A program made the position numbers and the translations under genes. From the IMG/VR virus record IMGVR_UViG_3300029404_000062: a stretch of 64,000 bases of DNA; one strand, given 5' to 3'. Positions 47,416 through 60,786 of this stretch are shown here, piece after piece. Below the pieces are notes generated by a model. It worked only from the letters and a program-made list of their open reading frames with translations, made no database searches and had not been told where the DNA came from. Source of the DNA: a virus. How positions within the stretch are numbered: the stretch's first letter is position 1; each line of letters opens with the position of its first letter.

Positions 47416-47600
47416 CTCCTCCTTTCTACAAAAATGGGTAAAGAAAAAGGACCTCCAAAGAAGTCCTTAAAATATCATTTTCCCAAACAGGAAACTTTTC
47501 TGCATAACTAACAAATAGTTTCCCATTTCGGCAACTTTATATAAAACACATCGGATACGAGGCACAGCCCCTTTTCAGGGCGTGTACCTTTTGGGTGCTG

Positions 47601-47978: not shown

Positions 47979-48004
47979 GGTCTGTATCCTCCGTGTGTTT
48001 TGTT

Positions 48005-48090
48005 TTCCGTAGGGCTTTTCCCTTCGTTGTGACTGTATATTACCGTCACTGCCCGGACATAGCAAGCGGCTATGCTGCACGATCATACAC
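48005..48090 (-). repeat. Promoter/leader cassette copy 1 (conserved ~80 bp: upstream box GATCGTGCAGTATAGCCGCTTGCTAT, -35 TTGCTA, 17-nt spacer, -10 TAATAT/TATAT, leader ...ACCGAAAGGG..., RBS).
   Basis: Aligns with copies at 48488, 49150, 49772, 50438, 50762, 54898, 56328. Confidence 0.6.
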
Positions 48091-48177
48091 ACCCCTTTTT
48101 GTCGGATTTATGTGTATTTACACGCCGGAGAAATCCGCCACTACGAGCAAAAGCCCCCGAAGGAGCTCTGCCTTTTT

Positions 48178-48462
48178 TCAGTGTGCGTTCCTGATGCACC
48201 ACTCGATCGCGTGACCGGCATCCGTGTAGGTCTCATCGGAAATCTTCAGAAGCTCCAATCGGCACTCAATCGGTGACCAGCCTTCCTCCGGGTCTTCCAC
48301 AAAGCCGTATACCGCTCCCTCCAGCATGCCGTTCCAGTTCATCTGGGCAACCAGAACCCTGTCACCGAACTGCATGATGCTGTCGTAGCAAGGTCTGAGT
48401 CGGTCGTAGAAGCTCTCGATGCTGATGTTGTTTTCTGGGAAATTAATCAAATGCTTTTTCAT
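48178..48462 (-). CDS. Hypothetical small protein (94 aa).
   Basis: ORF behind cassette copy 2. Confidence 0.4.
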   Translation of the reverse strand: MKKHLINFPENNISIESFYDRLRPCYDSIMQFGDRVLVAQMNWNGMLEGAVYGFVEDPEEGWSPIECRLELLKISDETYTDAGHAIEWCIRNAH

Positions 48463-48487
48463 GGTAAAATCCTCCGTGTTTTCGTTT

Positions 48488-48572
48488 TTCCCTTGGGGCT
48501 TTCCCCTTTCGGTATGTGCATATTACCGTCAGGTGCAAAGGATAGCAAGCGGCTATACTGCACGATCATCTT
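48488..48572 (-). repeat. Promoter/leader cassette copy 2.
   Basis: CCTTGGGGCTTTCCCCTTTCGGTATGTGCATATTACCGTCAGGTGCAAAGGATAGCAAGCGGCTATACTGCACGATCAT. Confidence 0.6.
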
Positions 48573-48597
48573 CCCAGAATACCGGGCAGAATGTACA

Positions 48598-48813
48598 TTA
48601 CTCTGCATTTTCGGCATCCTGCTCCATGAGGTCTACGATGGTATCGTAGAAGAATTGCGGGTCGTAGGCCAGCGGCTCCCGGCCGGCTTCCTTATCCATC
48701 CTGATCTGGTCTGCTACCATGTCCTCGGCATCCTCCAGCGTGAAGGCATCCTTATCGCTGTCATCCATGTGATTGTAGATTTCCACGATGACATCCATCA
48801 TCCGTTCTTCCAT
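48598..48813 (-). CDS. Hypothetical acidic small protein.
   Basis: ORF 48598-48879; internal start MEERMM chosen. Confidence 0.35.
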   Translation of the reverse strand: MEERMMDVIVEIYNHMDDSDKDAFTLEDAEDMVADQIRMDKEAGREPLAYDPQFFYDTIVDLMEQDAENAE

Positions 48814-48941
48814 GTGCTTTTCCTTTCTGGGGCATCCACGCCGCCACATCTTCCCCTGTGTGGGGCGTTGTCGCTTCATTCGGATCGTTTTGCCACCCGT
48901 GGCACAAGCCCCTGTGTGGGGCTGTGTCGGGGGCTGTCGGT

Positions 48942-49133
48942 TTATCTGTTCATCCGTCCCAGCAGGTAGGCTTCCTCCATTGCTTTCTGGATGCCCCAGA
49001 CCGGAACCTCAATGAAGTCCTCGCTGTCATTGTCGCGGGCTTCGAGGTCGCCCCGGCTGTCTACCGCTGCCATCAGGCGCTTGGCGATTTCCAGCAGGGC
49101 TTTTTCTTCTTCCTTGGTAATGTTCTTCTTCAT
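48942..49133 (-). CDS. Hypothetical small protein (63 aa).
   Basis: Behind cassette copy 3. Confidence 0.35.
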   Translation of the reverse strand: MKKNITKEEEKALLEIAKRLMAAVDSRGDLEARDNDSEDFIEVPVWGIQKAMEEAYLLGRMNR

Positions 49134-49149
49134 GGTGGTTTCCTCCGTT

Positions 49150-49232
49150 TTTCTTGGTTTTCCGTTTCGGTATGTGCATATTACCGTCTATGTCACACAC
49201 TATCAAGCGGCTATACTACACAAAGATAGCCG
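49150..49232 (-). repeat. Promoter/leader cassette copy 3.
   Basis: TTTCGGTATGTGCATATTACCGTCTATGTCACACACTATCAAGCGGCTATACTACAC. Confidence 0.55.
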
Positions 49233-49297
49233 CCCGGAACTGTGCGTATTACAGCAGAAGAAAAGGGCTGCCGGCAAGCCCCATGTGTTTCTCTGGC

Positions 49298-49747
49298 TTA
49301 GTAGTCTTCTTCGTCCTCGTAATCTTCCTCTTCGTCCCAGTCATCTTCCTCTTCATCCCAGCTGTCATCCTGGTCTTCTTCCTCATCCTTGAAGTCCCAC
49401 ATATCTTCGGTCGGCTGGTTTCTAAGGTCTGGGTTCTGCTCAACATAGTCGGCAACCGCTCCGCAAAGGATGTCCAGAACCTTTTCGTAGGCTTCCTCAC
49501 TGTAGACTGCCCAGGCATCTGCAGTCAGCTTTGCGATTTTGTCGTTGCCCTTGGCTCCAAGGAACCGCCCTGCAGGGTTGCAGGTTTCCTTGCCGTAGCC
49601 GATGCCCAGCTGGTCGCCGTCGTTGTAAAAGCGGTATCCGATGCGGCTCATTGCCCTTACCAGCTCCCCTGCGAGGCTGTCTGCCTTGCCCGTATCCGGT
49701 ACCAGTTCCTTGAAAAGTTTATTGATGCGGTCTTCATTCTTCGTCAT
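49298..49747 (-). CDS. Hypothetical protein with extremely acidic C-terminal tail (DWDEEEDYEDEEDY). Candidate DNA-mimic/anti-restriction-like.
   Basis: Start MTKNEDRINK behind cassette copy 4. Last ~45 residues are >60% Asp/Glu. Confidence 0.4.
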   Translation of the reverse strand: MTKNEDRINKLFKELVPDTGKADSLAGELVRAMSRIGYRFYNDGDQLGIGYGKETCNPAGRFLGAKGNDKIAKLTADAWAVYSEEAYEKVLDILCGAVADYVEQNPDLRNQPTEDMWDFKDEEEDQDDSWDEEEDDWDEEEDYEDEEDY

Positions 49748-49771
49748 TGTCGTATCCTCCGTTTTTGTTGT

Positions 49772-49848
49772 TTTCCCCTTTCGGTGACTGTATATTACCG
49801 TCACCTCGAAACACTATCAAGCGGCTAAACTACACGATCATTCAATCC
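49772..49848 (-). repeat. Promoter/leader cassette copy 4.
   Basis: CCCTTTCGGTGACTGTATATTACCGTCACCTCGAAACACTATCAAGCGGCTAAACTACACGATCAT. Confidence 0.55.
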
Positions 49849-49949
49849 TGTAATTGTCATATTTATGTGCTTTTCATGCCAGCTTTCGGAAGACAGACAC
49901 GAGCAAAAGGCTGGTCATTTCCAGCCCCTTGCGCCTGTCGGTCTTGCCT

Positions 49950-50210
49950 TTAGCGGATGATTTCGAGGTAGCTTACGTTGCCCCAGCAGTCCGTTCCCTT
50001 GAAGCGGATGCGCTTGTCGTTCTCCCTGTCGAGGGTGAATTTCCGAAGGAGCTTCATCTTCTGGATGCGGTTCAGAAGGTCCTTGCCGTTCTTCGCATCC
50101 TCAACGGCATCCCTGATCTCGACCACCGCACTGTCGCTTCCGTACCAGAGGTTGCTGAGTGCCTCTGGAATTCCGTTTGCAAGATAAAGGTTGATTTTTG
50201 TGTAGGTCAT
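49950..50210 (-). CDS. Hypothetical small protein (86 aa).
   Basis: Co-transcribed with 50226-50432. Confidence 0.35.
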   Translation of the reverse strand: MTYTKINLYLANGIPEALSNLWYGSDSAVVEIRDAVEDAKNGKDLLNRIQKMKLLRKFTLDRENDKRIRFKGTDCWGNVSYLEIIR

Positions 50211-50225
50211 GTTTTTGTTCTCCTC

Positions 50226-50432
50226 TCAAAATGTCATCGTTTCCAGAATCTCATCCATGCCTGCCTCCCAGTCATGGCGGCTAAATTCAATTTTGCTGTA
50301 CATCTCTGCGCTGTCCGGCTCATCGAAAAGCCGGAAGCATTCTCTTGCCAGCTCCTCGCTGGTATGCTGCTGGATTTCATCCGGCTGTCCATCCAGCCGT
50401 GTAAAGGTGATCTCGTAAGTGTAGCGTTCCAT
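50226..50432 (-). CDS. Hypothetical small protein (68 aa).
   Basis: Behind cassette copy 5. Confidence 0.35.
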   Translation of the reverse strand: MERYTYEITFTRLDGQPDEIQQHTSEELARECFRLFDEPDSAEMYSKIEFSRHDWEAGMDEILETMTF

Positions 50433-50437
50433 GTTCT

Positions 50438-50518
50438 TTGCCCCTTTCGTTTTGGTAGCTGTATATTACCGTCACTGCCGGATACTATCAAGCGGCTAAA
50501 GTACACGATCATCTGCCC
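50438..50518 (-). repeat. Promoter/leader cassette copy 5.
   Basis: TTTTGGTAGCTGTATATTACCGTCACTGCCGGATACTATCAAGCGGCTAAAGTACACGATCAT. Confidence 0.55.
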
Positions 50519-50571
50519 CCTGATCTGGAGGATTTATGTGTTTATCCGGGGAGGTTTCCCTCCCCGTTTTC

Positions 50572-50748
50572 TTAGCTGAACATCTCTGCCGTGTCATCGT
50601 CGATCCAAAGGTGCATGCCGTCTGCTTCCATAATCGCATGGTCTTCATGAACCTCGGTGATGATTCCTTCCCGGCTTCCTCTTCCATCAAATTCGTTCCA
50701 GTGCCATGTTGTCTTTCTTCCCTTTTTCCATGTTCTCCAATCAGCCAT
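50572..50748 (-). CDS. Hypothetical small protein (58 aa).
   Basis: Start MADWRTWKKG with RBS GGAGG, behind cassette copy 6. Confidence 0.35.
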   Translation of the reverse strand: MADWRTWKKGRKTTWHWNEFDGRGSREGIITEVHEDHAIMEADGMHLWIDDDTAEMFS

Positions 50749-50761
50749 TCTCCTGTCCTCC

Positions 50762-50842
50762 TTTGCTTTTTGTAGCTGTATATTACCGTCACCGCCCTGT
50801 GATAGCAAGGCCATAAAACGTCATATTATCAACGATCTTTGC
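50762..50842 (-). repeat. Promoter/leader cassette copy 6 (more diverged).
   Basis: TTTTTGTAGCTGTATATTACCGTCACCGCCCTGTGATAGCAAGGCCATAAAACGTCAT. Confidence 0.45.
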
Positions 50843-50958
50843 CCCTCATGTTTGGTACATATATGACCCCTGATTGACTTGCTATATATGTGTTTCTGCG
50901 GCATTATACACACAACGAAAGCAAAGAAAAACCAAACCAAAAACGGAGGACAAAAACC

Positions 50959-51210
50959 ATGAAAAAGACCATTACAGAAGTTGAAACCGCAATCGAAAAC
51001 CGCATCGCAGAGCTTGAAGAAGAATACGAGCTGGACATTTACGACCGCAACGACATCCGGGAAGAAGAATACCAGAAAGCCGGATGGCGGCACGACCCTT
51101 TCCCAGAGGAGCTTGAGGAAGAGGACGAAGAAGAGGAAGAAGATTGGCACTACCACAGCATGGAAGAACGACTGAACGAGGTCGGCATGAGCATGAGGGA
51201 TTTCTTCTAA
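50959..51210 (+). CDS. Small acidic protein (83 aa). Only plus-strand gene in this arm.
   Basis: Start MKKTITEVE after RBS AACGGAGGA. EEEDEEEEEDW acidic stretch; own promoter TTGACT...; followed by a hairpin terminator. Confidence 0.45.
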   Translation: MKKTITEVETAIENRIAELEEEYELDIYDRNDIREEEYQKAGWRHDPFPEELEEEDEEEEEDWHYHSMEERLNEVGMSMRDFF

Positions 51211-51214
51211 GGAA

Positions 51215-51262
51215 TCCCAAAAGGCTCCCCCAGCAGAAGCTGGGGCTCTGCCTCGTATCCCC
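51215..51262. terminator. Bidirectional terminator hairpin between convergent genes.
   Basis: CCCCCAGC-AGAA-GCTGGGGG stem-loop with flanking T/G-rich runs. Confidence 0.45.
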
Positions 51263-51409
51263 CGTTTTGGTTTGGTATGATACACAAAACCGCTGCCAGA
51301 TATTTGTGTACATTATGGCGGCGGTTCTTCTTGCTATCGTTGCTTTATAGAGGTAACATACAGTAAACTGGAAGGGGGTTCTCATTCTTTTGAGGCCCCC
51401 ATTTTCCGT

Positions 51410-51601
51410 CTAATCGGCTTCGCCCTGCATTGCCTGATGCATCACCCTGCGGTTATGCGCCCTGGCTTTCTTTTTCAGGTCTCTTTTCCATCTGCGGATG
51501 GTCACCGCCTTGCAGTGGTTTCTCGACCATTCGTATTCATCCAGAATGTATCTGCCGCCGTGTTCCCTCTCGCCATAAGCCGGCATCTTTCTGTGTCCCA
51601 T
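51410..51601 (-). CDS. Hypothetical small basic protein (63 aa).
   Basis: ORF only. Confidence 0.3.
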   Translation of the reverse strand: MGHRKMPAYGEREHGGRYILDEYEWSRNHCKAVTIRRWKRDLKKKARAHNRRVMHQAMQGEAD

Positions 51602-51672
51602 AGGCCCCTCCTGTTAAACCAAGCCCTCCCGGTCTTTTCTGGCCGAGAGGGTATTTTTCTGATTGTGGTATC

Positions 51673-52044
51673 TTATTCCGGCTTCGTTCCGTCATCCATC
51701 TGGATGACTGCCATCTGCCCGAACATGCTGACGAATGCCTCCGGCACCCAGAAACGTTCCCTGAATTTCCTGAGCAGGTCCTGGGGCAGCTCTGCGAAAT
51801 CTTCCTCGCCCAATCCGCAGATGAAGAAGTTTCCCTTGATGGGCTGCTCCAGTTCCGGGATGTATCTGCTGAACAACTTCTCGGTGAACAGACCGTTGTC
51901 ATCGGTGACCAGGGCGGCGCGTTCTTCCCACGGGTAGGTGGCTGTGATGCAGTCGCAGTTGAGGATGCGGTAGAACTCTTGCAGGGAGTTTTCAATATCC
52001 ACCACCTGCGGATGCTCCATCGGTTTGATCAGAAGAACTTTCAT
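51673..52044 (-). CDS. DUF3846-like hypothetical protein.
   Basis: MKVLLIKPMEHPQVVDIENSLQEFYRILNCD resembles the DUF3846 family common in phage/ICE accessory regions. Start overlaps the upstream stop (ATGA). Confidence 0.35.
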   Translation of the reverse strand: MKVLLIKPMEHPQVVDIENSLQEFYRILNCDCITATYPWEERAALVTDDNGLFTEKLFSRYIPELEQPIKGNFFICGLGEEDFAELPQDLLRKFRERFWVPEAFVSMFGQMAVIQMDDGTKPE

Positions 52045-52508
52045 TCGACCCAGCCCCCTTTCACGATTGCCCAGTCTGCAAGCTGCATCTTCTGCTGTCC
52101 GCCCCATGCAATATCCTCTAACGCTTCCTCCGTTCCGCAGCGGTTGCAGATCTGAATGTCCGCCCTTCGACTGAGTGCCTGCTGCTGATGGGCGTAGCAG
52201 TCAGGATTTGCTCCGCACCTGGGGCAACGTGGTCCGGTCTGTCGCGTTTTTCCAAGCCGGTCGAGCGACACCTTGACCTCGGCATCCGTTGCCACACGGT
52301 GGCAACTGTCCGCGCCGTAGGAAATGTTCAGATGGCTTCCGGTGTCCCAGCTCACTAAGATGTTTCCGGCATCATCAACCCCGTTGCAGGTTCCCTGCGT
52401 TCCGATGGGCGGTGCCTGCCTGTCATCCATCTCATCGAGGATGATCCGGCATCCGACCGGGAACTCTTTTCTCAACTTCTTGACCATTTTCTGATCTGCG
52501 AAATTCAT
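52041..52508 (-). CDS. DUF4314-like protein with C-terminal zinc-ribbon.
   Basis: VGCRIILDEMDDRQAPPIGTQGTCNGVDDAGNILVSWDTGSHLNISYGADSCHRV (DUF4314-like) plus CPRCG...CNRCG. Confidence 0.45.
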   Translation of the reverse strand: MNFADQKMVKKLRKEFPVGCRIILDEMDDRQAPPIGTQGTCNGVDDAGNILVSWDTGSHLNISYGADSCHRVATDAEVKVSLDRLGKTRQTGPRCPRCGANPDCYAHQQQALSRRADIQICNRCGTEEALEDIAWGGQQKMQLADWAIVKGGWVE

Positions 52509-52984
52509 GACTGCACCTCCCCGATCATCTTCTGGGCGGCATCCTTATCCATGCATTCCTTCAGCGCACCTTCGAGGATGTGCATCGGGAAGTGGAATGC
52601 CTTGTAGCCGTCATGCAGAACTTTGTAGTAATACCGGCTCGGTGCGCGGTGCCCGAAGTCGTTTTCCATGATGTAGACCATTGCGGTCACCATCTCCGGC
52701 TCTGCCCCTTCCCGGAGCAGTTCAATGTTCAGATCTTCCTTGCGGTAGTAGTTCGGGTAGCCCTCATAGAGGTCGAGGTTTCCTTCGTCCCTTTCCGAGA
52801 TCTCCCACACCAGAACCGGCGTGTTCTTCTTCGGGTTCGGTGCGATGGTGGCGCAGCCGCGGAACAAAAGCTCCCAGCCGGCCAGCACCGCCTGCCCTGC
52901 AATTTTTGCATCCGGGCATCGGTCTGCCATCTGCTCCACCGACAGGTTGCTGCCGTAGGCGATGTAATATTTCTTGTTCTTCAT
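52505..52984 (-). CDS. Gamma-glutamyl cyclotransferase-like (GGCT/AIG2-fold) protein 1.
   Basis: YYIAYGSNLSVEQMADRCPDAKIAG... matches the GGCT signature YxAYGSNL. Start MKNKKYY. Confidence 0.65.
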   Translation of the reverse strand: MKNKKYYIAYGSNLSVEQMADRCPDAKIAGQAVLAGWELLFRGCATIAPNPKKNTPVLVWEISERDEGNLDLYEGYPNYYRKEDLNIELLREGAEPEMVTAMVYIMENDFGHRAPSRYYYKVLHDGYKAFHFPMHILEGALKECMDKDAAQKMIGEVQS

Positions 52985-53114
52985 TTGAATCTCTCCCTTC
53001 GGTTTTCTCCGCTCTTGTCTGGCGGTATGGTATATATCACTCTTTTGCCCTGATTTATCAAGGCCGATGAGCATCATATACTGCACAGTGTTTTTTTCCT
53101 GTGATCGTGTACTC

Positions 53115-53636
53115 TTACATCATCTGCCGCTTCTTCAGATACCGGATGGCTTCCGCCCTTCCGATGCTGGCTGCCAGTCCACGCTTCAGTGTGTCCAGCG
53201 GAAATTCCCAGTCGCTGTATCCGCCACGCAGCAGTTCAAAATACTCGGCATCCGGGCAGCCAAGCCTCCGATCCTCGTGCATCACATAAGCGATGCATGG
53301 CTTTGCCTTTTTCATGCGGTTCCCGTTCAGGTTCCAGACCGGAAGCTGGAACTGCTTCTTATAATAGTATCTTGGGCAGCCTTCGTATCGGTCTAGCAGG
53401 AGCTCATCGTATTCCGAGAGCTTCCAGACCACCGCCGGTACGCTTTCATTGGCATCCTGCTCGATGGTGGCATAGCAGCCGGTCTTACTCTTTTTGAACA
53501 GGAGCCGGTAGCCCATGATCTCGGTCGTGCCGACCACCACAGCGTAAGGGCATCTCTTTCCCATCCGTTCCATGTCGAGGTTGCTTCCGTAGGCAAGGTA
53601 ATATCTGGATGGGTTTCGGCTGATCAGTTCAAACAT
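53115..53636 (-). CDS. Gamma-glutamyl cyclotransferase-like (GGCT/AIG2-fold) protein 2, paralog of the preceding gene.
   Basis: RYYLAYGSNLDMERMGKRCPYAVVVG...; start MFELISRN. Confidence 0.65.
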   Translation of the reverse strand: MFELISRNPSRYYLAYGSNLDMERMGKRCPYAVVVGTTEIMGYRLLFKKSKTGCYATIEQDANESVPAVVWKLSEYDELLLDRYEGCPRYYYKKQFQLPVWNLNGNRMKKAKPCIAYVMHEDRRLGCPDAEYFELLRGGYSDWEFPLDTLKRGLAASIGRAEAIRYLKKRQMM

Positions 53637-53865
53637 CTGCCTCACCGTCCTCCCTGCCAGTGAACTCCACGCCCTGGAAATCCTCTTTCCCAAGCTCGAT
53701 CTGGCTGTCCCGCCACCAGTCCTCTGCCACACGCTGGGCTTCCTCCACGGTCGGCTCTTTCATCTCGGATTCATAAATGGTCACCGTCCTCTGGTAGGTC
53801 TCGGTGATGATCACCTTAAAGGCTCTGCCGCCCGGTGTGTTTTCATTTTTTAACGTGCTTTTCAT
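53629..53865 (-). CDS. DpnD/PcfM-like small protein.
   Basis: 78 aa; FKVIITETYQRTVTIYESEMKEPTVEEAQRVAEDWW pattern typical of the DpnD/PcfM family seen in conjugative/phage accessory regions. Confidence 0.4.
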   Translation of the reverse strand: MKSTLKNENTPGGRAFKVIITETYQRTVTIYESEMKEPTVEEAQRVAEDWWRDSQIELGKEDFQGVEFTGREDGEADV

Positions 53866-53932
53866 AAACCTGCACCTCCTTCTACCACCTCAAGGGCGGT
53901 TGCCCGCCCAAAAGGTGCCCGTGCATCCCGGC

Positions 53933-54868
53933 TTATTTGTTCCGCCAGGATGCGTTGCCCTCCATGTTCCGCAGAAGGATCTCCCTTGCCGTTGCAAATT
54001 CATCCCCGATGAATCCCAGCCTCAGCATCCAGCACCGCATCGCGTACTTTTCGTTGTCGGTCTGCTGGGGCTTCGGGCTTGCCGTCCTGACCATCTTGGC
54101 AAGCTGGCTCATTGCGAGGCAAAGCTGGATGTAGGCTTTCATCTCACCGGCATGCAGTCCGTTGCGCTTTCCGTCCGCTGGGTCTGCAAATTGGAAAAGG
54201 CGGAATTCAATGGTTCCTTTTGTAAAGGTGGCATGAAGGTTCAGCATATGGTATCGGCTTGAATTGTAATGCTGGCTTCTGCCGTAGTCTGCACCGTTAC
54301 CTTCGTACCAGATGTCTTCCAGCCTGTGCATGGTGGTCGGCTTCTCGCGGTTCAGCCGGTCGAGGAAGCGGTGGTTGACCACCTGGCAATAATGTCCGGT
54401 GCGCCCCGCGTCGATCCGGATGGCTCTGCCGATCTGCTGTTCGTGCGCCGCCATGATGTTCACAAGGTTGCGGATGGTCTTTGCGGTGTGGTCGCCTTTG
54501 CCAATGTGAATGTGGACTCCGCATCCGCGGCTTGGGCTGCTCTTTGCGCCTGCCTTGCGGAGCAGTCGGATAATTTCCTGCAGGGGTTCGATGTCGTCGT
54601 AGGTGAGGATCGGGGTGACCAGTTCGCATTTTTCTGCGTCCGGTCCGTAGATGCTCACATCCCTCTGGAATTTCCAAACCCTGCCCTGTCCGTCCTTGCA
54701 AGCCCAGCTGTAATATCCGTACTCGCTGGCCGCGTTCCATGCTCTGGTTCCGAAGTACTCGGCGACCTTTCTTGCCGCTTTTTCTCTGGTGATGTTGTTC
54801 ATCTCGATCTCAACTCCGATGGTCTGGTTCTTCATGGCTTCAATCTGCTCTCTTGTTTTATCGTTCAT
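53933..54868 (-). CDS. Amidoligase (glutamine-synthetase/GCS-like carboxylate-amine ligase, Amidoligase_2 family).
   Basis: Metal-binding GVEIEM (ExE), CGVHIHIG (HxH), and TIEFRLFQ (E-x-R) motifs in the order expected for the GS-like amidoligase fold. Start MNDKTREQ behind cassette copy 7. Confidence 0.6.
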   Translation of the reverse strand: MNDKTREQIEAMKNQTIGVEIEMNNITREKAARKVAEYFGTRAWNAASEYGYYSWACKDGQGRVWKFQRDVSIYGPDAEKCELVTPILTYDDIEPLQEIIRLLRKAGAKSSPSRGCGVHIHIGKGDHTAKTIRNLVNIMAAHEQQIGRAIRIDAGRTGHYCQVVNHRFLDRLNREKPTTMHRLEDIWYEGNGADYGRSQHYNSSRYHMLNLHATFTKGTIEFRLFQFADPADGKRNGLHAGEMKAYIQLCLAMSQLAKMVRTASPKPQQTDNEKYAMRCWMLRLGFIGDEFATAREILLRNMEGNASWRNK

Positions 54869-54897
54869 GGTATGTTCTCCTTTGTTTTTTCCTTGTT

Positions 54898-54996
54898 TTC
54901 CCTTTCGGTATGTGCATATTACCGTCAGGTGCGGATAATAGCAAGGATATAAAAGAACATATATTCGACAAATATCGAGAGGAATGATCGTGTACA
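54898..54996 (-). repeat. Promoter/leader cassette copy 7.
   Basis: CCCTTTCGGTATGTGCATATTACCGTCAGGTGCGGATAATAGCAAGGATAT...GATCGTGTACAT. Confidence 0.5.
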
Positions 54997-55100
54997 TTTC
55001 TGCAGTTTATCCGCTTGATAATGTACATTTTCAGAGTTAATATCGTTACAATGAAAGAGGGTCTCGCATATTTTCCGTCCCCCATTGGGAGCTTGGGAGC

Positions 55101-56285
55101 TTACGCTCCCGCCTCCAGCATCTGCGCCGTGTCTGCCCCACAGTCGGGCTGTGTCGGCTCGGCATCTGCTGATGCGATCGTTTCCCCTGCGGAGGCACTG
55201 CCCTCCTGTGCCGCCTGTTTCGCGGCTTTCAGGGCATCCCGTTTTGCCTTTTCCCTTGCGAGGAACTTCTGTGCTTCCTCATCCGTGCGGAAAGCCGCAT
55301 GGCCGGAAAGATTCTCCATGAGGATCTTGCGTGTTTCTTTGAAGTCCGGACCGTTCATCCCCAGCCGCAGGAGCCATGTGCGGAGTGCGTATTTCTCATT
55401 CTCATCGTTGACATCCTTTGCCTGGATGCGCTTCTGGCTGATCGCCTGCTGGTTCATCAGCACCGCCAGCTGTGCAAAAGCCGTCAGGTGTTCGTGGTCC
55501 GGTGCGGTCGGGAAGCCGGTAAAGGTGACCTTCTCGGTGGTGATTTTCAGGCCTTCCAGTGCAGCACCATGTTCAGTCTCATAGTCGCTTACCGCGTTGA
55601 TGAAGTTCATGATGGCAAAGGTGCAGCTATCGTCTTTCAGCTTCTCCACCAGTCCCTCTTCCACATGGAAGTTTCCGCCAGTCGCCTTGCCGATGAGCTT
55701 GCCGCGGCTGTAAAGAAGGTTGACCAGGTTGCGGAGAGTCACACCGTTGTGCTGGCTGACCGGGAATGCAAGTTCCAAGTCCAGCGGCACCTCTTCCGGC
55801 TGATCTTCTGTCTCCTGCGATTCTGCATCCGGCTCATCCTCTATGGTATCATCCTCAGCCGTATTGTCCGGCTCCAATGCATCCTCGGCTCCTGCTTCCG
55901 CAGGTTCATCTTCTGCGGTATCTGCATCTTCGGATTCCTGCTCGTCCAGAACCTCCAGCTCTGCTTCGGGCATCTGCTCAGTTTCCGCTTCGGTCACAGG
56001 CTCCTCATCCATATCCGCTGTCAGCTCTGTGTCCTCCGGCTGGTCATCCGTGCTCTCAATACTCTCGCCGCCGCGGATCAGTCCCTCATTCAGCAGGGTC
56101 GTCAGCAGCTCGGCATCTGCATTCTCCGGCTCGACCAGAAGGTTGCCATTCCGGTCGATGGTGTAGCTCCCGATGTCGTAAGAATACAGAGGTGCTTTGG
56201 TATAGTAAGGGTGGATGCCGGTCAGCTCCTCCATGCGTTTTGCGAGGGTCTTTCTCTCGGCTACGTTCAGTTTAAATTTCAACAT
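55101..56285 (-). CDS. Degenerate amidoligase paralog: retains the C-terminal half but lacks the catalytic N-terminal motifs; carries a ~120-aa hyper-acidic insert.
   Basis: C-terminus EKYALRTWLLRLGMNGPDFKETRKILMENLSGHAAFRT aligns with the amidoligase's EKYAMRCWMLRLGFIGDEFATAREILLRNMEGNASWRN; TLRNLVNLL vs TIRNLVNIM. Region 70-190 is D/E-rich (TDDQPEDTELTADMDEEPVTEAETEQ...). Confidence 0.5.
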   Translation of the reverse strand: MLKFKLNVAERKTLAKRMEELTGIHPYYTKAPLYSYDIGSYTIDRNGNLLVEPENADAELLTTLLNEGLIRGGESIESTDDQPEDTELTADMDEEPVTEAETEQMPEAELEVLDEQESEDADTAEDEPAEAGAEDALEPDNTAEDDTIEDEPDAESQETEDQPEEVPLDLELAFPVSQHNGVTLRNLVNLLYSRGKLIGKATGGNFHVEEGLVEKLKDDSCTFAIMNFINAVSDYETEHGAALEGLKITTEKVTFTGFPTAPDHEHLTAFAQLAVLMNQQAISQKRIQAKDVNDENEKYALRTWLLRLGMNGPDFKETRKILMENLSGHAAFRTDEEAQKFLAREKAKRDALKAAKQAAQEGSASAGETIASADAEPTQPDCGADTAQMLEAGA

Positions 56286-56327
56286 AATTCATCGCTCCTT
56301 TTCGTTCATTTGTTTTTGTGCATCCCG

Positions 56328-56398
56328 ATGTTCTTTTCGGTAGCACATATATCACTCTAAAACGGATGAATAGCAAGGCCATTTCCCGATATTCTTCA
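56328..56398 (-). repeat. Promoter/leader cassette copy 8 (diverged).
   Basis: CTTTTCGGTAGCACATATATCACTCTAAAACGGATGAATAGCAAGGCC. Confidence 0.4.
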
Positions 56399-56508
56399 TG
56401 TTCGACCATTTACACAAGGGACCGCAAAATCTGTTGTGTAAATAGGACCAATATGTAAGCCCACCATATCACCAGGTCGCTTTCTACCTAGTAATATAGC
56501 GGGCCAGT

Positions 56509-58737
56509 TTATTCTTCCAGACCTGCACACCACGCGATGCCGGCCAGAACGAAGTAAACACAGGGCAGTGCCACGCCGTTGCCCCAGAGTTTGTACTCTG
56601 CCGCATCCGAATACGGGTCAGCCAGCCATTTGCGGATCTGTTTCTCTGTCTTTGGTTTCTTCGCCTGCGTCACGATCCTGCGGTGTGTTTCAAACACATC
56701 TGCCCAGAATGCCAGCTCTTCATCGGTCGGATTCTCCGCGCCGAGGTCACTGCACCACCAGTCCGGAAAGCCCTGCAACCGGGCGCATTCGATTGGTGTC
56801 AGTCGGCGGACTGTGTAGCTGACATCCTGCGGCACCGGTGCAATGGTGGTCGGGTCTTTGTAGTCCCGTGCCATCAAGGTCGGCGCAACCTCTTTCTCCA
56901 CCTGCATATAGGAGCCGGTAGTCATGGCATAGACGCTTTCCGGGACACAGACTGCATGGCGGTCAGTGGCATCCAGCGTGAAGCAGACATCCTCATTAAC
57001 CCCGTCCCCCTGCGGGCCGTTCTCGTCCTTGCGGCCGATCATGTTGCCCTGCAGCACAAAGGTCTGCATCTGGTCGCTCCGGGTCGCCATGAGTGCGCCG
57101 GACTTTCCATGCAGGTCGATCAGCTCATTGCGCTGATTTACGTGGAATGCGGTCACATCTTCCGGCTGTGCCACGAAGGTCTGCTGCTTCATCCCCGGCT
57201 CTGCTGCCAGTGCTGCTGACTTATCTCCCAGATCCCAGACTTCATCCCGCTGATTCTGGGTAAAAGCCACTGCCGGTGCGCCGCCGTGGGTACAGGACAA
57301 AGGCGGTGCCACCTGTTCGTCCACCGTGCAGTTCGACTTTCCGCCACCCTGATCCACGCAGACAACAGGTTCACAGATGCACAGCCCTCCCTGATTGCAG
57401 GTCGGGTCACCACCGCTGCGGTCGAGTGTCCGAGAGGTGCTGGCTTCATAGAAACCACTGTGCGGATTGTCACTCATCATGGAGTGGCTTGCCTTGGAGC
57501 AGACACCGTAGGCTTTCAGAACGAACAGCGTCTGGTCATTGTTGCAGCCCAGAGTTGCCGATTTTTCCTCTTGCCAGATCGCGCCCTTTCCGCCTCCATC
57601 ACATCCAGAGCGGATCTTCAGTGTGACCGCCGGGGAGTTTTCAACATCTTTCACCAGGCTTTCCACAGAGTTTTCAACTCCCATGACCAGCGGAACATTG
57701 CCGCCGCCTGTACCGCACCGGCTGGTCAGCGTCTGCACCTTGCCATCCTCGGAAATCTTCACCCGGCTGTCCGCAGGATGATTTTCCAGTGCAATGGCGG
57801 CCGGAACCACACCGGCCCGGAGTGTCGGTGAGCGTTCTTCCTCGTACCCGATGCTTCTGGCATTGGCGGAGTGTTCAGTGCAGAAGCCTGCCGCCTCCAT
57901 AACGCAGGGTGGATGCCCATGATCCTCTGCCCGGAGCGTCCCGGTCACTTCATGGGATACATCCATCTGTGCTCCACCCTGATCATTCAAGACGATTCTT
58001 CCGTTTCCACAGCCTGTCTCTCCAATGCTTCTTTCAGCACAGGCGGCAGCTCTTTGCCACGCACGGAAGCTCTCCGCAGAATACCGAGACACGCCTTCGG
58101 ACTCAAATAATATTTCTTTGGCACCCCGACCTGCAAAATCTGCGACAAGGAAGATTCGTTTTCTTCTTTGGGGTACGCCCCACCACTGTGCATCAAGGAC
58201 TCGATATGCGACGCTCCATCCGTCTCCCAGATAGTAGTCGGCATCGGGCCAGCCTTTTTTCGCAGGCGCAGGCACCTCGGCGGCCGGTTCTTTAACACCG
58301 ATGACGGCTTCGAGGACTGCTTTGAAGTCCTGCCCTTTGTTGGAGGAGAAAGCTCCCGGCACATTTTCCCACACGATGAATCGCGGTTGTTTTCCATTGG
58401 TTGCACACCTCATTTCCTTCACGATTCGGATTGCTTCATAAAACAGGCTGGACCGTGAACCATCCAGACCATCTCGTTTCCCGGCGATAGACATATCCTG
58501 GCATGGACTGCCAAAGGTGATGATGTCCACGGGCGGCAGGTCTGCGCCGCTGATGGCAGACACATTTCCGTAGTGTTTCATCTGGGGCAGCCGCTTCGTT
58601 GTTACCCGGATGGCGAACGGCTCCACCTCACTGCTCCAGACAGGCTCGATTCCAGCAAGCATTCCACCCAACGGAAAACCCCCGGAGCCATCGAAGAGGC
58701 TGCCGAGGGTCAAAGTCTTATTCTGTTCTTTGCTCAT
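56509..58737 (-). CDS. DNA (cytosine-5)-methyltransferase, 742 aa with a very long target-recognition region (multispecific phage-type).
   Basis: Motif I LFDGSGG, motif IV GSPCQDMS, motif VI ENV. ~450-aa insert between catalytic motifs and motif IX/X. Confidence 0.85.
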   Translation of the reverse strand: MSKEQNKTLTLGSLFDGSGGFPLGGMLAGIEPVWSSEVEPFAIRVTTKRLPQMKHYGNVSAISGADLPPVDIITFGSPCQDMSIAGKRDGLDGSRSSLFYEAIRIVKEMRCATNGKQPRFIVWENVPGAFSSNKGQDFKAVLEAVIGVKEPAAEVPAPAKKGWPDADYYLGDGWSVAYRVLDAQWWGVPQRRKRIFLVADFAGRGAKEILFESEGVSRYSAESFRAWQRAAACAERSIGETGCGNGRIVLNDQGGAQMDVSHEVTGTLRAEDHGHPPCVMEAAGFCTEHSANARSIGYEEERSPTLRAGVVPAAIALENHPADSRVKISEDGKVQTLTSRCGTGGGNVPLVMGVENSVESLVKDVENSPAVTLKIRSGCDGGGKGAIWQEEKSATLGCNNDQTLFVLKAYGVCSKASHSMMSDNPHSGFYEASTSRTLDRSGGDPTCNQGGLCICEPVVCVDQGGGKSNCTVDEQVAPPLSCTHGGAPAVAFTQNQRDEVWDLGDKSAALAAEPGMKQQTFVAQPEDVTAFHVNQRNELIDLHGKSGALMATRSDQMQTFVLQGNMIGRKDENGPQGDGVNEDVCFTLDATDRHAVCVPESVYAMTTGSYMQVEKEVAPTLMARDYKDPTTIAPVPQDVSYTVRRLTPIECARLQGFPDWWCSDLGAENPTDEELAFWADVFETHRRIVTQAKKPKTEKQIRKWLADPYSDAAEYKLWGNGVALPCVYFVLAGIAWCAGLEE

Positions 58738-59504
58738 ACAGCCTCCTCTCCGAGCATCTGCTCTGTGGCTTTCTGGTAGAAATCTCTGGACACTTCAAAT
58801 CCGTAGCTGTTGCGTCCCAGCTCTCTGGCAGCCCGAAGTGTCGAACCACTGCCGGCGCACGGGTCAATGACCACATTGCCCTCATCGGTAAAGGTTTCGA
58901 TCAGGCGTTTCAGCACGGACACCGGTTTCTGGGAAGGATGGATCTTCGGATATTCTTTGCCGTCCCGCTTCCAGTCAAACCAGTTGAAGATCATGTGGGG
59001 CTTGCCGTCTTCTCCGAGGTTACGGAACTTCGGCAGCTTGTTCCGGTACAGCACCAGAGCGTATTCCGTTGCACCCACGATCTTCATGTTGGCTTTCAGG
59101 ACTTGCGGACTGTAGTTCTTGCAGAACACCAGCGGGATATAATTCTTGAAGCCGTACTTCTCCGCTTCAGTGATCACCTTCGGGATCTGCTGGAAAGCAC
59201 AGAAAACGATCATGCACGGCGCATCTTTCTCGCCTTTTCCCGGCTCTTTCTTGAGCAGCCGGTTGCAGAAATGGAAATATTCTGCAATGTTGAAAGTGAA
59301 GTCGGTATTGAATGCCGCTTTCCGTGCCTTATCGCTCTCACCATTCTTGTTGTCCCCGTCCACATACCAGTCCGGTCTGCTGGCGTAGAAGTCCATTCCT
59401 ATGTTATACGGAATGTCGGCGATCACCAGCTGTGCCTTGGGGATGTTATAGGACTTGAAATTCTGGAAGTTGTCATGGATGAGGACACATTTCACATCAG
59501 CCAT
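58734..59504 (-). CDS. Amino-DNA methyltransferase (N6-adenine or N4-cytosine), beta-class motif order.
   Basis: Motif IV IADIPYNIG precedes the AdoMet motif VIDPCAGSGSTL. Confidence 0.75.
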   Translation of the reverse strand: MADVKCVLIHDNFQNFKSYNIPKAQLVIADIPYNIGMDFYASRPDWYVDGDNKNGESDKARKAAFNTDFTFNIAEYFHFCNRLLKKEPGKGEKDAPCMIVFCAFQQIPKVITEAEKYGFKNYIPLVFCKNYSPQVLKANMKIVGATEYALVLYRNKLPKFRNLGEDGKPHMIFNWFDWKRDGKEYPKIHPSQKPVSVLKRLIETFTDEGNVVIDPCAGSGSTLRAARELGRNSYGFEVSRDFYQKATEQMLGEEAV

Positions 59505-60765
59505 CGGCACCCACGCTTTCCGGCTCAAAGGTCGCCACCTCATCGAACTTCAGCCTCTGACCATCCCGGAGAACACACACATCCTCATAGCGGCCTTCAC
59601 TGTGTTCGATATACCGTTTCACGATGACATCCACGAATTTCGGGTCCAGCTCAATGCCCCGGCAGACACGGTCGGTCTCCTCACAGGCGATCAGGGTCGA
59701 GCCGCTACCGAGGAACGGGTCAAGGACGATGCCGTTGGTCATGGTAGAGTTGCGGATGGGATAGCTCATCAGACCGATGGGCTTCATGGTCGGATGGTCC
59801 TTGTTGGATTTCGGACGGTCATACTCCCAGATGGTCGTCTGCTTGCGGTCAGAATACCACTGGTGCTTGCCCTTCTGCTTCCAGCCATACAGACACGGTT
59901 CGTGCTGCCACTGGTAAGGACTGCGCCCCAGCACCAGTGCGTTCTTCTTCCAGATACAGCACCCGGACAGGTAGAACCCTGCATCCTTGAACGCCTTTTG
60001 GAAGTTCAATCCTTCGGTATCTGCATGGAAGATGTAGATGGAACCGTCATCCGCCAGATGGTCATGCATCTGTTTGAACGCCGCCAGCAGGAACTCGTAG
60101 AATTCCGAGTCGCCCATGTTGTCGTTCAGGATCTTGCCGGCCGTTTCTTCCACATCGACGTTGTACGGAGGGTCCGAAAGCACAAGGTTGGCTTTCACGC
60201 CGTCCATCAGGGTGCCGTAGCACTCTGCTTTCGTGGAGTCACCGCACAGGACTTTGTGCTTGCCCAGCATCCAGAGGTCACCCTCTTTGGAGAAGCACGG
60301 CTGCTTCAGTTCGGATTCCACATCAAAGTCATCTTCCTTGACTTCCTTGCTGTGTACCTTGTTGAACAGCGTCTCGATCTCAGGCGGGTCAAAGCCGGTC
60401 TTGCCCAGATCAAAGTTGGAATCCTCGATGTCTTTGAGCAGGTCGGCCAGCAGCGAATCATCCCACGCGCCTGTAATTTTGTTGAGGGCAATGTTCAGCG
60501 CCTTTTCTCTGGTCTTGTCGATGTCCACCACCGCACACGGAACTTCGGTGTAGCCCAGTTCCATCGCAACGGTCAGTCGCTGGTGACCGCCGATGATTGT
60601 CATGTCGGCATTGACCACCAGCGGGTCGGCAAAGCCAAACTCCGTGATGGAGTTCTTGATCTTCTCGTACTCTTTGTCTCCCGGCTTCAGCTTTTTCCGG
60701 GGATTGTATGCCGCTGGCTTGAGTACGGACACCGGCAGCATCTTCAGTTCAGCAGTTGTTTTCAT
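59497..60765 (-). CDS. ParB-like nuclease domain fused to an amino-DNA methyltransferase (DPPY).
   Basis: N-terminal ParB-like KMLPVSVLKPAAYNPRK... with GGHQR motif; methyltransferase motifs LSDPPYNV and LDPFLGSGST. Confidence 0.8.
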   Translation of the reverse strand: MKTTAELKMLPVSVLKPAAYNPRKKLKPGDKEYEKIKNSITEFGFADPLVVNADMTIIGGHQRLTVAMELGYTEVPCAVVDIDKTREKALNIALNKITGAWDDSLLADLLKDIEDSNFDLGKTGFDPPEIETLFNKVHSKEVKEDDFDVESELKQPCFSKEGDLWMLGKHKVLCGDSTKAECYGTLMDGVKANLVLSDPPYNVDVEETAGKILNDNMGDSEFYEFLLAAFKQMHDHLADDGSIYIFHADTEGLNFQKAFKDAGFYLSGCCIWKKNALVLGRSPYQWQHEPCLYGWKQKGKHQWYSDRKQTTIWEYDRPKSNKDHPTMKPIGLMSYPIRNSTMTNGIVLDPFLGSGSTLIACEETDRVCRGIELDPKFVDVIVKRYIEHSEGRYEDVCVLRDGQRLKFDEVATFEPESVGADG

Positions 60766-60786
60766 GTAAGCTCCTCCTTACTGGAT

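Follow-up and report, generated by a model that had tools for sequence, protein, structure and literature searches.

The window analyzed here is the whole stretch of 64,000 nucleotides from the IMG/VR virus record IMGVR_UViG_3300029404_000062. It contains genes for TerL, portal, ClpP protease, capsid, tape measure, lysin and serine recombinases, which confirms the phage-borne location given in a first-pass annotation of this DNA. On the minus strand of the prophage lies a cluster encoding a 394-aa acidic protein, an Amidoligase_2 enzyme, a DpnD/PcfM-like protein, two paralogs of the gamma-glutamyl cyclotransferase family (GGCT), a DUF4314 zinc-ribbon protein and a DUF3846 protein. The cluster recurs as a conserved accessory module in temperate siphophages of gut Clostridia, where it is placed between DNA methyltransferase genes and the terminase. 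Three DNA methyltransferases and a SAM synthetase directly precede it.

59497-60765, minus strand: ParB-N6/N4 methyltransferase fusion, upstream context (Pfam)
58734-59543, minus strand: N6/N4 methyltransferase, upstream context (Pfam)
56509-58737, minus strand: C5-cytosine methyltransferase, upstream context (Pfam)
56349-56377, minus strand: promoter-like cassette CTTGCTA-N15-GTGATAT, 5' of the pseudo-ligase gene (pattern search, nine-cassette alignment)
55101-56285, minus strand: 394-aa amidoligase paralog, predicted to be catalytically dead ('pseudo-ligase'), pI 4.25
56061-56285, minus strand: N-terminal subdomain of the pseudo-ligase, residues 1-75 (pLDDT 96-98; full-length hhalign)
55788-56060, minus strand: disordered acidic linker of the pseudo-ligase, residues 76-166, 91 aa with 43 D/E and 0 K/R (pLDDT 45-58; composition)
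55266-55787, minus strand: C-terminal domain of the pseudo-ligase, residues 167-340 (BLASTP, hhalign, pLDDT about 97)
54916-54945, minus strand: promoter-like cassette 5' of the ligase gene (pattern search, nine-cassette alignment)
53933-54868, minus strand: 311-aa Amidoligase_2 enzyme, predicted GS/GCL-fold ATP-dependent carboxylate-amine ligase, pI 9.27
53629-53865, minus strand: 78-aa DpnD/PcfM-like acidic protein (Pfam E 7e-6)
53115-53636, minus strand: GGCT paralog A, its ATG overlapping the DpnD stop codon (ATGTTTGA) (Pfam GGACT, PHROG 2520)
53034-53062, minus strand: promoter-like cassette 5' of GGCT-B (pattern search, nine-cassette alignment)
52505-52984, minus strand: GGCT paralog B (Pfam GGACT and AIG2_2; alignment with human GGCT 2pn7)
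52041-52508, minus strand: DUF4314 protein with a C-terminal CxxC...CxxC zinc ribbon, ATGA overlap with GGCT-B (Pfam E 1.2e-26)
51673-52044, minus strand: DUF3846 protein, ATGA overlap with the DUF4314 gene (Pfam E 3.8e-21)

A pattern search of the window revealed nine copies of the promoter-like cassette CTTGMTA-N14-17-GTRATAT, all on the minus strand between 48037 and 56377, compared with a chance expectation of 0. Three of them precede cluster genes, namely the 394-aa gene, the ligase gene and GGCT-B, and the earlier proposal that the 394-aa protein is encoded by a second cassette-driven gene was thereby borne out. The pattern was found again at equivalent positions in related loci; the upstream cassette next to the ligase is kept even where the identity of the relative's pseudo-ligase has fallen to about 40%. 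The promoter cassette of the pseudo-ligase also precedes several further small acidic proteins. The genes from the ligase onwards had been described as a single operon. The gene list is correct, but because GGCT-B has its own cassette the putative operon probably consists of two transcription units. In addition, the DUF4314 gene at 52041-52508 falls outside the interval 52505-56285 that had been assigned to the whole cluster.

The 311-aa protein matches the Pfam model PF12224 (Amidoligase_2) with 189.5 bits (cut-off 22; E 1.2e-55) over profile positions 1-244 of 245. The residues E20, E22, E82, H119, H121, R205, N210, E221 and R223 are all present and are invariant in 93 relatives. With this score and a complete set of nine residues (ExE, E, HxH, R, N and ExR; metal, ATP and acyl-phosphate), the assignment as an Amidoligase_2-type ligase with ExE, HxH and ExR-type residues was upheld. 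The predicted model shows the GS/GCL fold, and the closest solved relatives are glutamate-cysteine ligases and glutamine synthetases; for Amidoligase_2 family members themselves no solved structure was detectable by sequence, and no measured activity was found. Judged by sequence and model, the 311-aa protein is predicted to be an intact enzyme of the glutamine-synthetase/glutamate-cysteine-ligase fold. Beyond the Pfam model it carries a C-terminal helical module of about 65 residues (residues 243-309, nt 53942-54142).

The 394-aa protein could be aligned with the ligase over its full length (hhalign 99.9%, E 4e-35; residues 4-338 with ligase residues 21-311), and BLASTP revealed 40% identity over 67 aa to the C-terminal part of the ligase (E 2e-14). 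The claim that this protein keeps the C-terminal half of an amidoligase is in agreement with both comparisons (hhalign 99.5-99.9%). It also matches PHROG 2443 (E 1.6e-39), and its model has the same fold neighbors as the ligase at lower Z. Pfam matches were absent at E 0.01 for the 394-aa protein and at E 1 for ten shorter family members. The ligase residues E20, E22, E82, H119 and H121 correspond to K, K, a deletion, E and A, with K3 and K5 in the places of E20 and E22, whereas R205, N210, E221 and R223 are replaced by A, a deletion, T and T. All nine ligase-invariant residues are hence substituted or deleted, in line with the catalytic degeneracy noted before, and across 268 family members the equivalent positions show no conservation of catalytic residues. 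Over its full length the 394-aa protein is paralogous to the ligase, and it probably keeps the ligase fold. It has none of the nine active-site residues and is predicted to be catalytically dead.

The acidic region had been described as a stretch of about 120 residues which replaces the N-terminal part of the ligase. Our analysis using pLDDT values and hhalign demonstrated instead that residues 1-75 are retained and pair with ligase residues 21-112 in the full-length alignment, although this subdomain alone reaches just E 0.033 against a shallower ligase profile. The linker measures 91 aa and is an insertion between the N-terminal subdomain and the strand that bears HxH in the ligase. Across the family its length varies from 0 to 135 residues and it is always acidic. 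Since many members have a linker of just 0-4 residues and still keep the conserved domains and the genomic position, the linker is inessential to the function of the family. The helical module NEKYAxRxWLxRLGxxGxxFKxxRxxLxxNLxGxxAFR is shared with the ligase (pseudo-ligase residues 267-333, nt 55287-55487), and pseudo-ligases and ligases alike hardly vary at its positions N-E-K, R, W, G, R, G and A-F/W-R.

Two GGCT-fold paralogs had been reported, and the Pfam family GGACT (PF06094; cut-off 22.8) recovered both, GGCT-A with 35.9 bits (E 1.3e-8) and GGCT-B with 44.6 bits (E 2.6e-11; AIG2_2 E 1.4e-6). They match PHROG 2520 with E 8e-36 and 2e-41, and are 34% identical to each other (E 7e-31). The nearest solved protein to GGCT-A is human GGCT (E 3e-5), and GGCT-B aligns over its full length to the human structure 2pn7, where the phage YEG stands opposite the human QEG. 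GGCT-B has the YGSNL motif and the catalytic Glu within 'LDLYEG'. Both paralogs thus retain two features of the human enzyme, the YGSNL loop for substrate binding and the catalytic Glu. Among the companions, the DUF4314 zinc-ribbon protein was clearly recovered, whereas the DpnD-PcfM match of the 78-aa protein is marginal (26.3 bits versus a cut-off of 25). In the latter protein a folded core is conserved while the C-terminus varies, ending with ...GEADV in this window.

The pseudo-ligase family comprises 2,325 representatives at 50% identity. It was counted in 536 stretches of IMG/VR, in at least 594 stretches from genomes and in only 5 plasmid records, and is almost entirely phage-borne. Its position is always between DNA methyltransferase genes and the terminase. 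The 90%-identity cluster of the 394-aa protein contains 798 sequences and that of the ligase 3,767. The ligase is found in at least 34 Ca. Heliusvirales reference genomes of the PV0364xx accession series, a lineage reported in 82% of 5,441 people (PMC11283538). In nearly all related loci a ParB-methyltransferase gene, with or without Dcm, is located immediately 5' of the pseudo-ligase; the commonest downstream neighbor is DUF4314 (45 of 53 genome loci). DpnD is present at 60 of 67 viral loci versus 12 of 53 genome loci. Where the pseudo-ligase occurs, 62 of 67 viral loci also carry the ligase, as do 36 of the 53 genome loci; 17 of the 53 species sampled have the pseudo-ligase but no ligase, whereas GGCT without the ligase was never observed among the 53 genome loci. 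The pseudo-ligase is more widely retained than the ligase and is not simply its accessory. As the ligase is missing in these 17 species, the pseudo-ligase has a function of its own.

The Pfam entry for Amidoligase_2 describes the family as neighboring an Aig2-family cyclotransferase in Firmicutes, and PHROG annotations already include the ligase/GGCT pairing in phages. Papers that refer to Iyer et al. 2009 and Hardies et al. 2013 describe this pairing as well (PMC5498523, PMC10580990), and an arrangement of two PHROG 2443 proteins plus GGCT is listed for Clostridium clostridioforme prophages (PMC11318856). The first-pass statement that the pairing is uncharacterized in a phage therefore holds experimentally but not as a novelty, since it has been predicted and is routinely annotated (PHROG, PMC5498523, PMC10580990, PMC11318856). 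The situation is different for the pseudo-ligase. Its current labels are 'hypothetical', 'virulence-related protein' (the NCBI name) and 'amidoligase enzyme' (PHROG 2443); 'virulence-related' is without evident basis, and neither the NCBI name nor the PHROG label notes the loss of the catalytic residues. We found no description of the pseudo-ligase as such in annotations or the reachable literature, and the inactivated acidic paralog appears to be undescribed, as had been supposed.

Our preferred reading, which we hold tentatively and with a little less than even confidence, is a gamma-glutamyl-type ligation and removal system combined with a protein that binds the same partner without catalysis; its probable purpose is host takeover or counter-defense. 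In an ATP-driven reaction, the ligase would couple a carboxylate of the glutamate type to a target amine, and target recognition may occur at least partly via the C-terminal module of the ligase. The GGCTs are predicted to cleave the amide at N-terminally free gamma-glutamyl groups with release of 5-oxoproline; this could undo, shorten or recycle what the ligase has made, or break down a gamma-glutamyl compound of the host. The pseudo-ligase would perform no catalysis and would bind the same partner as an adaptor, a sequestering protein or a competitor. The co-regulation by nine cassettes, together with the small acidic proteins and the methyltransferase and SAM-synthetase neighbors, suggests a host-takeover or counter-defense program. 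The gamma-glutamyl chemistry we infer from the fold neighbors only. Instead of being a recognition surface, the shared module could also serve oligomerization or have a purely structural role, and, because the ligase is absent in 17 of 53 species, the function of the pseudo-ligase need not relate to the ligase target. A more specific version, which we regard as rather improbable, is that ligase and pseudo-ligase form a writer/binder pair for a gamma-glutamyl-type mark on a host protein, for example a defense or housekeeping factor. Both would recognize the target via the shared module, the GGCTs would erase or recycle the mark, and the more ancient and more widely kept dead copy would clamp or sequester the target alone. 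If true, this would be a new principle of counter-defense or host takeover in phage lineages that are among the most prevalent of the human gut.

Among the alternatives, a role in small-molecule metabolism is unlikely but survives best. Here, the only substrates of ligase and GGCTs would be free metabolites, such as gamma-glutamyl amino acids, amines or precursors of low-molecular-weight thiols, and a host pool would be reshaped during infection, while the pseudo-ligase would be unrelated, e.g. with a role in the methylase/packaging region. The closest solved relatives of both enzyme types indeed use small molecules: for the ligase they are glutamate-cysteine ligases and glutamine synthetases, and for the GGCTs human GGCT, which cleaves gamma-glutamyl amino acids; the occurrence of the pseudo-ligase independently of the ligase would also fit. 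However, a ligase and a cyclotransferase acting on one free metabolite would constitute an ATP-wasting cycle, and a scan of cluster and flanks revealed no transporter or other pathway genes. Furthermore, a ligase module which lies outside the Pfam core and is common with a non-enzyme fits a macromolecular partner better.

The composition of the linker (43 D/E and no K/R in 91 residues), the invariably acidic linkers of the family and the location beside methyltransferases in a shared cassette context with several small acidic proteins would be expected of an anti-restriction protein that works as an acidic DNA mimic or decoy, in the manner of Ocr or ArdA, with the linker as the active part and the ligase-like domains as a scaffold. 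We consider this distinctly improbable: the many members with a linker of 0-4 residues keep domains and position, and the linker is predicted to be disordered rather than a rigid DNA-shaped surface.

Modification of the cell envelope for superinfection exclusion, with the enzymes making or trimming peptide links of an unusual kind on peptidoglycan precursors, was proposed for the cassettes of phiEco32-, RIO-1- and LUZ24-like podophages and is the published prediction for phage amidoligase cassettes that PMC5498523, PMC10580990 and PMC11318856 cite; the same two enzyme families occur in our cluster. We judge it very unlikely, since the amidotransferase, the ATP-grasp ligase and a second amidoligase are missing from cluster and flanks and the neighbors are DNA methyltransferases and small cytoplasmic-looking acidic proteins. 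It is further known from GGCT enzymology that the gamma-D-Glu of the stem peptide offers no free alpha-amine usable by a cyclotransferase, which argues against this role as well.

We assign a similarly small probability to DNA hypermodification. The ligase would place an amino acid on a modified base or on a carboxylated or aminated intermediate, the GGCTs would strip a transient gamma-glutamyl protecting group, and the pseudo-ligase would bind DNA or the modification machinery. BtrG removes such a protecting group in butirosin synthesis. The cluster directly follows three DNA methyltransferases and SAM synthetase, and amidoligase genes have been observed beside thymidine-hypermodification genes in viral metagenomes (PMC8989533). 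In contrast, no hydroxymethylase, 5-HMU DNA kinase, aGPT-Pplase-type or glycosylase-fold gene was detected in cluster or flanks, with the replication module lying outside the window, and the methyltransferases are constant whereas ligase and GGCT are optional. Pup-like tagging, with the DpnD/PcfM-like acidic protein ligated through a C-terminal acidic residue, is hardly credible, since the DpnD C-terminus is unconserved (...GEADV here), DpnD is missing from two-thirds of the ligase-bearing genome loci (12 DpnD versus 36 ligase), its core is folded and conserved, unlike Pup, and the cluster has neither a depupylase-like nor a proteasome partner.

For over 15 years, phage amidoligase/GGCT cassettes have been annotated without a known substrate, and the version with ligase and pseudo-ligase is very common in human-gut prophages. 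Once the dead paralog is recognized, the shared module can be used as bait for the putative common partner. In practice, the result corrects the annotation and offers a design that can be tested, but it does not yet amount to a new mechanism.

Compared with known systems, the phage ligase is a clear member of Pfam PF12224 (GS-like amidoligases; Iyer, Abhiman, Burroughs and Aravind 2009), with ExE/HxH/ExR and the GS/GCL fold, and like other members it is paired with AIG2/GGCT genes. In contrast to the family at large, the phage clade adds the conserved C-terminal helical module of about 65 residues and usually has a dead paralog upstream. The cassettes of phiEco32-, RIO-1- and LUZ24-like podophages (Hardies et al. 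2013, as cited in PMC5498523) likewise combine a phage Amidoligase_2 with GGCT, and peptide-bond chemistry was predicted for them. As portrayed there, they have an amidotransferase, an ATP-grasp ligase and a second active ligase, whereas the Clostridia cluster is without all three; glutamine amidotransferase and ATP-grasp ligase were absent among 27 proteins scanned across 46930-63761. The podophage hosts are Proteobacteria and those of the present cluster Clostridia, where the location between methyltransferases and terminase and the addition of pseudo-ligase, DUF4314 and DUF3846 are further differences. The PADLOC defense-system models gave 0 matches for the seven cluster proteins. The PafA/Dop pupylation pair consists of two paralogous GS-fold proteins around one gamma-glutamyl amide bond, an arrangement that ligase and pseudo-ligase would resemble, and the models of ligase and pseudo-ligase both match Dop and PafA. 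However, Dop is an active amidase with its ATP site preserved, the phage paralog is without all catalytic residues, and the removal activity resides in Dop in pupylation but putatively in the unrelated GGCT enzymes here. A conserved Pup-like tag was not evident in the cluster, the variable DpnD-like C-terminus being without a conserved Gly-Gly-Glu/Gln. Gamma-glutamyl cyclotransferases of the BtrG type serve in protecting-group chemistry. With human GGCT (C7orf24) the phage GGCTs have a full-length alignment, the YGSNL loop and the catalytic Glu in common, but the similarity is low (E 1e-4 to 1e-5) and the phage proteins form two diverged tandem paralogs.

The window is a prophage, with genes for a large terminase, a portal protein, a ClpP-type prohead protease, an HK97-type capsid protein and tail proteins, together with a 1,984-aa tape-measure protein, an amidase/glucosaminidase lysin, three serine recombinases, an HNH endonuclease and a small terminase of the P27 family. 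The cluster containing the amidoligase-related genes is arranged as follows.

Genes of the amidoligase cluster, listed from its upstream end.
62565-63761, minus strand, SAM synthetase, at the upstream end with an HNH endonuclease
59497-60765, minus strand, ParB-N6/N4 methyltransferase
58734-59543, minus strand, N6/N4 methyltransferase
56509-58737, minus strand, 742-aa C5-cytosine methyltransferase
55101-56285, minus strand, 394-aa acidic protein
53933-54868, minus strand, Amidoligase_2 enzyme (311 aa)
53629-53865, minus strand, DpnD/PcfM-like protein
53115-53636, minus strand, first gamma-glutamyl cyclotransferase paralog (GGCT-A)
52505-52984, minus strand, second gamma-glutamyl cyclotransferase paralog (GGCT-B)
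52041-52508, minus strand, DUF4314 zinc-ribbon protein
51673-52044, minus strand, DUF3846 protein
after the DUF3846 gene, minus strand, small, mostly acidic proteins, then TerS and TerL

A start/stop overlap, ATGTTTGA, joins the DpnD/PcfM-like gene to GGCT-A, and ATGA overlaps are found at the GGCT-B/DUF4314 and DUF4314/DUF3846 junctions. The Pfam domain of the C5-cytosine methyltransferase (56509-58737, minus strand) is matched in two stretches with a very long middle region between them, the layout one would expect if this is a multispecific phage enzyme carrying several target-recognition domains. Elsewhere in the prophage, the gene of a 465-aa ATPase_2/DUF234 protein (36454-37851, minus strand) separates the tape-measure gene from tail genes upstream. 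Among the PADLOC candidate defence families, PDC-S27 matches this protein (E 2.8e-56), which may be a prophage-borne defence moron. The large serine recombinases (7552-9393, 13519-15819 and 15862-18210, minus strand) are clustered at the prophage end, adjoined by an AAA_25/KaiC-like ATPase (9404-10453). Three such enzymes exceed the need of a single integrase and could reflect nested elements or invertases. Two large tail-region proteins (21224-23506 and 23670-27011, minus strand) terminate in GDSL/SGNH lipase-esterase domains and are possible tail fibres with a receptor-modifying or deacetylating role.

The assignment of the 311-aa protein to Amidoligase_2 with ExE and HxH motifs, made in the first-pass annotation from the sequence alone, was confirmed by Pfam (E 1.2e-55) and by PHROG 2443 'amidoligase enzyme' (E 7e-106). 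A comparison of 93 distinct ligases from related loci revealed that E20, E22, E82, H119, H121, R205, N210, E221 and R223 are invariant. The AlphaFold model, calculated with an alignment of database homologs, has a mean pLDDT of 86.9 and a pTM of 0.89; a solved relative in the PDB was not detectable by sequence. The ligase is an intact enzyme of the GS/GCL fold and is predicted to be active. The two GGCTs, which share 34% identity, also look intact: both match PHROG 2520 and can be aligned from end to end with the gamma-glutamyl cyclotransferase of humans, both retain the YGSNL loop, and the Glu of their 'YEG' stands opposite the Glu of human 'LDEQEG', the catalytic Glu98 of that enzyme. The earlier GGCT assignments are thus supported. 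The DpnD/PcfM-like proteins encoded directly after the ligase (53629-53865 and homologs in the related loci L002-L097) consist of a conserved core and a variable acidic tail. These tails often end in GGE, EGGE or GGDGDE, recalling Pup; the copy in the window ends in GEADV.

The 394-aa protein had no match in Pfam or NCBIfam, and it is matched by PHROG 2443 with an E value of 1.6e-39. Using BLASTP, only its last 67 residues could be aligned with the ligase (40% identity). A profile of 54 diverse members of its family, compared with a shallow ligase profile, aligned residues 169-335 with ligase residues 117-311 (99.5% probability, E 2.5e-23), beginning exactly at the HxH strand. The comparison of the N-terminal part alone was not significant (E 0.033), so the ligase profile had to be widened to more diverse sequences; with it, a full-length alignment of residues 4-338 with ligase residues 21-311 was obtained (99.9%, E 4e-35). 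In this alignment E20 and E22 of the ligase correspond to K3 and K5, H119 and H121 to E171 and A173, R205 to an alanine, and E221 and R223 to T254 and T256, while N210 and the whole strand carrying E82 are deleted. All nine active-site positions are therefore substituted or deleted, in agreement with the earlier proposal of a catalytically degenerate paralog, and across 268 family members they are not kept as catalytic residues. Near-invariant in the family are P175, H179, N186, L187, G245, F255, N296-E297-K298, R302, W304, R319, G328 and A331-F332-R333, much of which is common to the ligase. A PDB sequence search found no solved relative of this protein or of the DUF4314 protein. Judged from these alignments, the 394-aa protein is a full-length, catalytically dead paralog of the ligase, and the two have a conserved C-terminal module in common (ligase residues 243-311, dead-paralog residues 267-340).

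The acidic stretch was originally thought to replace the N-terminal region. This is not the case: the AlphaFold model retains an N-terminal subdomain (residues 1-75, pLDDT 96-98) and a C-terminal domain (pLDDT about 97), and the disordered residues 76-166 (pLDDT 45-58) are inserted after helix alpha-2, ahead of what was the HxH strand. The 91 residues of this segment include 43 D/E and no K/R. Across the family the linker varies from 0 to 135 residues and is always acidic. A dependence of the linker on the ligase, as if it were the substrate, was rejected, since linkers of 0-4 residues occur with a ligase and linkers of 107 residues without one.

The repeated 'cassette' recognized in the first-pass annotation proved to be a promoter-like element consisting of CTTG(A/C)TA, 14-17 nt, GT(A/G)ATAT and a conserved ACCGAAAGGG leader, with a conserved TAGCCGC box upstream. 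Nine copies, where none is expected by chance, are present within 48037-56377, all on the minus strand, and no further copy was found in the 64 kb. Every copy is followed by a short gene or operon. The set resembles a regulon dedicated to accessory genes, situated immediately upstream of the terminase. Rfam contains no family matching the region. Related phages, including distant ones of Pelotomaculum, Clostridium botulinum and Streptococcus, have the pattern at corresponding positions. The cluster probably comprises three transcription units inside this nine-promoter regulon, since copies stand before the ligase, before GGCT-B and before the 394-aa gene. The single operon initially assumed to start at the ligase is probably two units, as GGCT-B has a cassette of its own. 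The same cassette also stands over several small proteins (49298-49747, 50890-51210, 48942-49133 and neighbours) that have strongly acidic tails (e.g. ...DEEEDDWDEEEDYEDEEDY) and no Pfam match, one of them (50890-51210) encoded on the plus strand; they are candidate DNA-mimic or anti-restriction proteins.

Database searches showed that the dead-paralog family comprises 2,325 representatives at 50% identity (E <=1e-3), with matches in 536 IMG/VR stretches and at least 594 stretches of one-genome-per-species bacteria. The assigned hosts are mostly Lachnospiraceae, Oscillospiraceae and other Clostridia, and a few MAG bins are labelled otherwise. The dead paralog is nearly exclusive to phages. A conjugative-element origin, prompted by DUF4314, DUF3846 and DpnD/PcfM, was rejected because only five plasmid records match the family, all non-mobilizable. 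Among isolate records, the closest matches (86%) bear the titles Blautia faecis and Faecalibacterium intestinale; Clostridium fessum SNUG30386 (L083) comes next at 71%. The two 86% loci, L082 (Blautia faecis DFI.3.66) and L084 (Faecalibacterium intestinale CLA-AA-H281), share identical coordinates for 9 of 12 mapped genes, from MetK through GGCT-B. The two records belong to different families (Lachnospiraceae, Ruminococcaceae). They could share a prophage of very recent origin, or one of the assemblies could be contaminated or mis-assigned.

In the 160 loci fetched, the best of roughly 1,100, the gene order is constant: the ParB-methyltransferase, an optional second methyltransferase and/or Dcm, the dead paralog, then, where present, the ligase block with DpnD and one or two GGCTs, DUF4314 standing on one or the other side of this block, followed by an optional DUF3846, more genes and TerL. 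Co-occurrence was counted in loci with at least 4 kb downstream. Among 67 close viral relatives the ligase is present in 62, any GGCT in 63 and DUF4314 in 56; the corresponding numbers for 53 more diverse genomes, one per species, are 36, 29 and 45. In the genome set no GGCT occurs without a ligase, and the ligase is missing from 17 loci. A minimal dead paralog of 195 aa, annotated 'virulence-related protein', fills the same slot in streptococcal Javan prophages and a Clostridium botulinum phage. In Streptococcus phage Javan630 (L164, 1111-6620) a SAM synthetase, a methyltransferase and the mini dead paralog lead on to the terminase, and in Clostridium phage CWou-2020b (L001, 3369-8767) the order is methyltransferase, mini dead paralog ('virulence-related protein'), terminase; both lack ligase and GGCT. 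Faecalibacterium phage FP_Taranis, whose described host is F. prausnitzii, encodes a related ligase but neither a GGCT nor the dead paralog. At least 34 Ca. Heliusvirales reference genomes carry the ligase and most carry the dead paralog; the window was not assigned to this group because its TerL is closest to streptococcal Javan prophages (76%). Taken together, the module is real, well delimited and very widespread in phages.

Fusions gave no clue to the dead paralog. The fusion of its C-terminal half to a serine recombinase (database protein P0222) looks like an insertion or gene-calling artefact, and some other members have N-terminal HTH or zinc-ribbon extensions. The P0222 fusion and a ligase gene split by a ~3.4-kb insertion in one IMG/VR contig (L068, 1289-5742) suggest that mobile elements insert into the cluster.

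Since a third of the sampled species have the dead paralog but no ligase, this protein must have a role of its own, and the enzymes seem to be an accessory to it, not the reverse. PADLOC and NCBIfam models matched none of the cluster proteins. We propose, with moderate to low confidence, that the ligase would form a gamma-glutamyl-type amide, that the GGCTs would remove or recycle gamma-glutamyl groups as 5-oxoproline, that the common C-terminal module would be a recognition or interaction surface, and that the dead paralog would act by binding; the purpose may be host takeover or counter-defence. Specific counter-evidence exists for each alternative. Chemistry of the ligase and GGCTs on a free metabolite survives best and is unlikely. 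An action of the dead paralog as an acidic DNA mimic is improbable, modification of the envelope or hypermodification of DNA would each be a long shot ranking below it, and Pup-like tagging through the DpnD-like protein is the most improbable.

Discussion of phage Amidoligase_2 genes beside GGCT and amidotransferase genes goes back to Iyer et al. 2009 and Hardies et al. 2013, and such sets are usually suggested to serve superinfection exclusion or cell-wall modification (PMC5498523, PMC10580990, PMC11318856). The paper on Ca. Heliusvirales does not mention amidoligases (PMC11283538). The first-pass view that the pairing is uncharacterised in phages thus holds only insofar as open-access PMC and bioRxiv full text yielded no experimental work on the cluster proteins; the same texts yielded no account of the dead paralog, which within this scope is undescribed, as had been supposed. 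A survey of Clostridium clostridioforme prophages lists, uncommented, two PHROG 2443 genes and a GGCT in one prophage (PMC11318856), which is the same arrangement as here. The enzyme pairing is therefore already known; the novelty lies in the dead paralog, a variant form within the Amidoligase_2 family that had gone unannotated.
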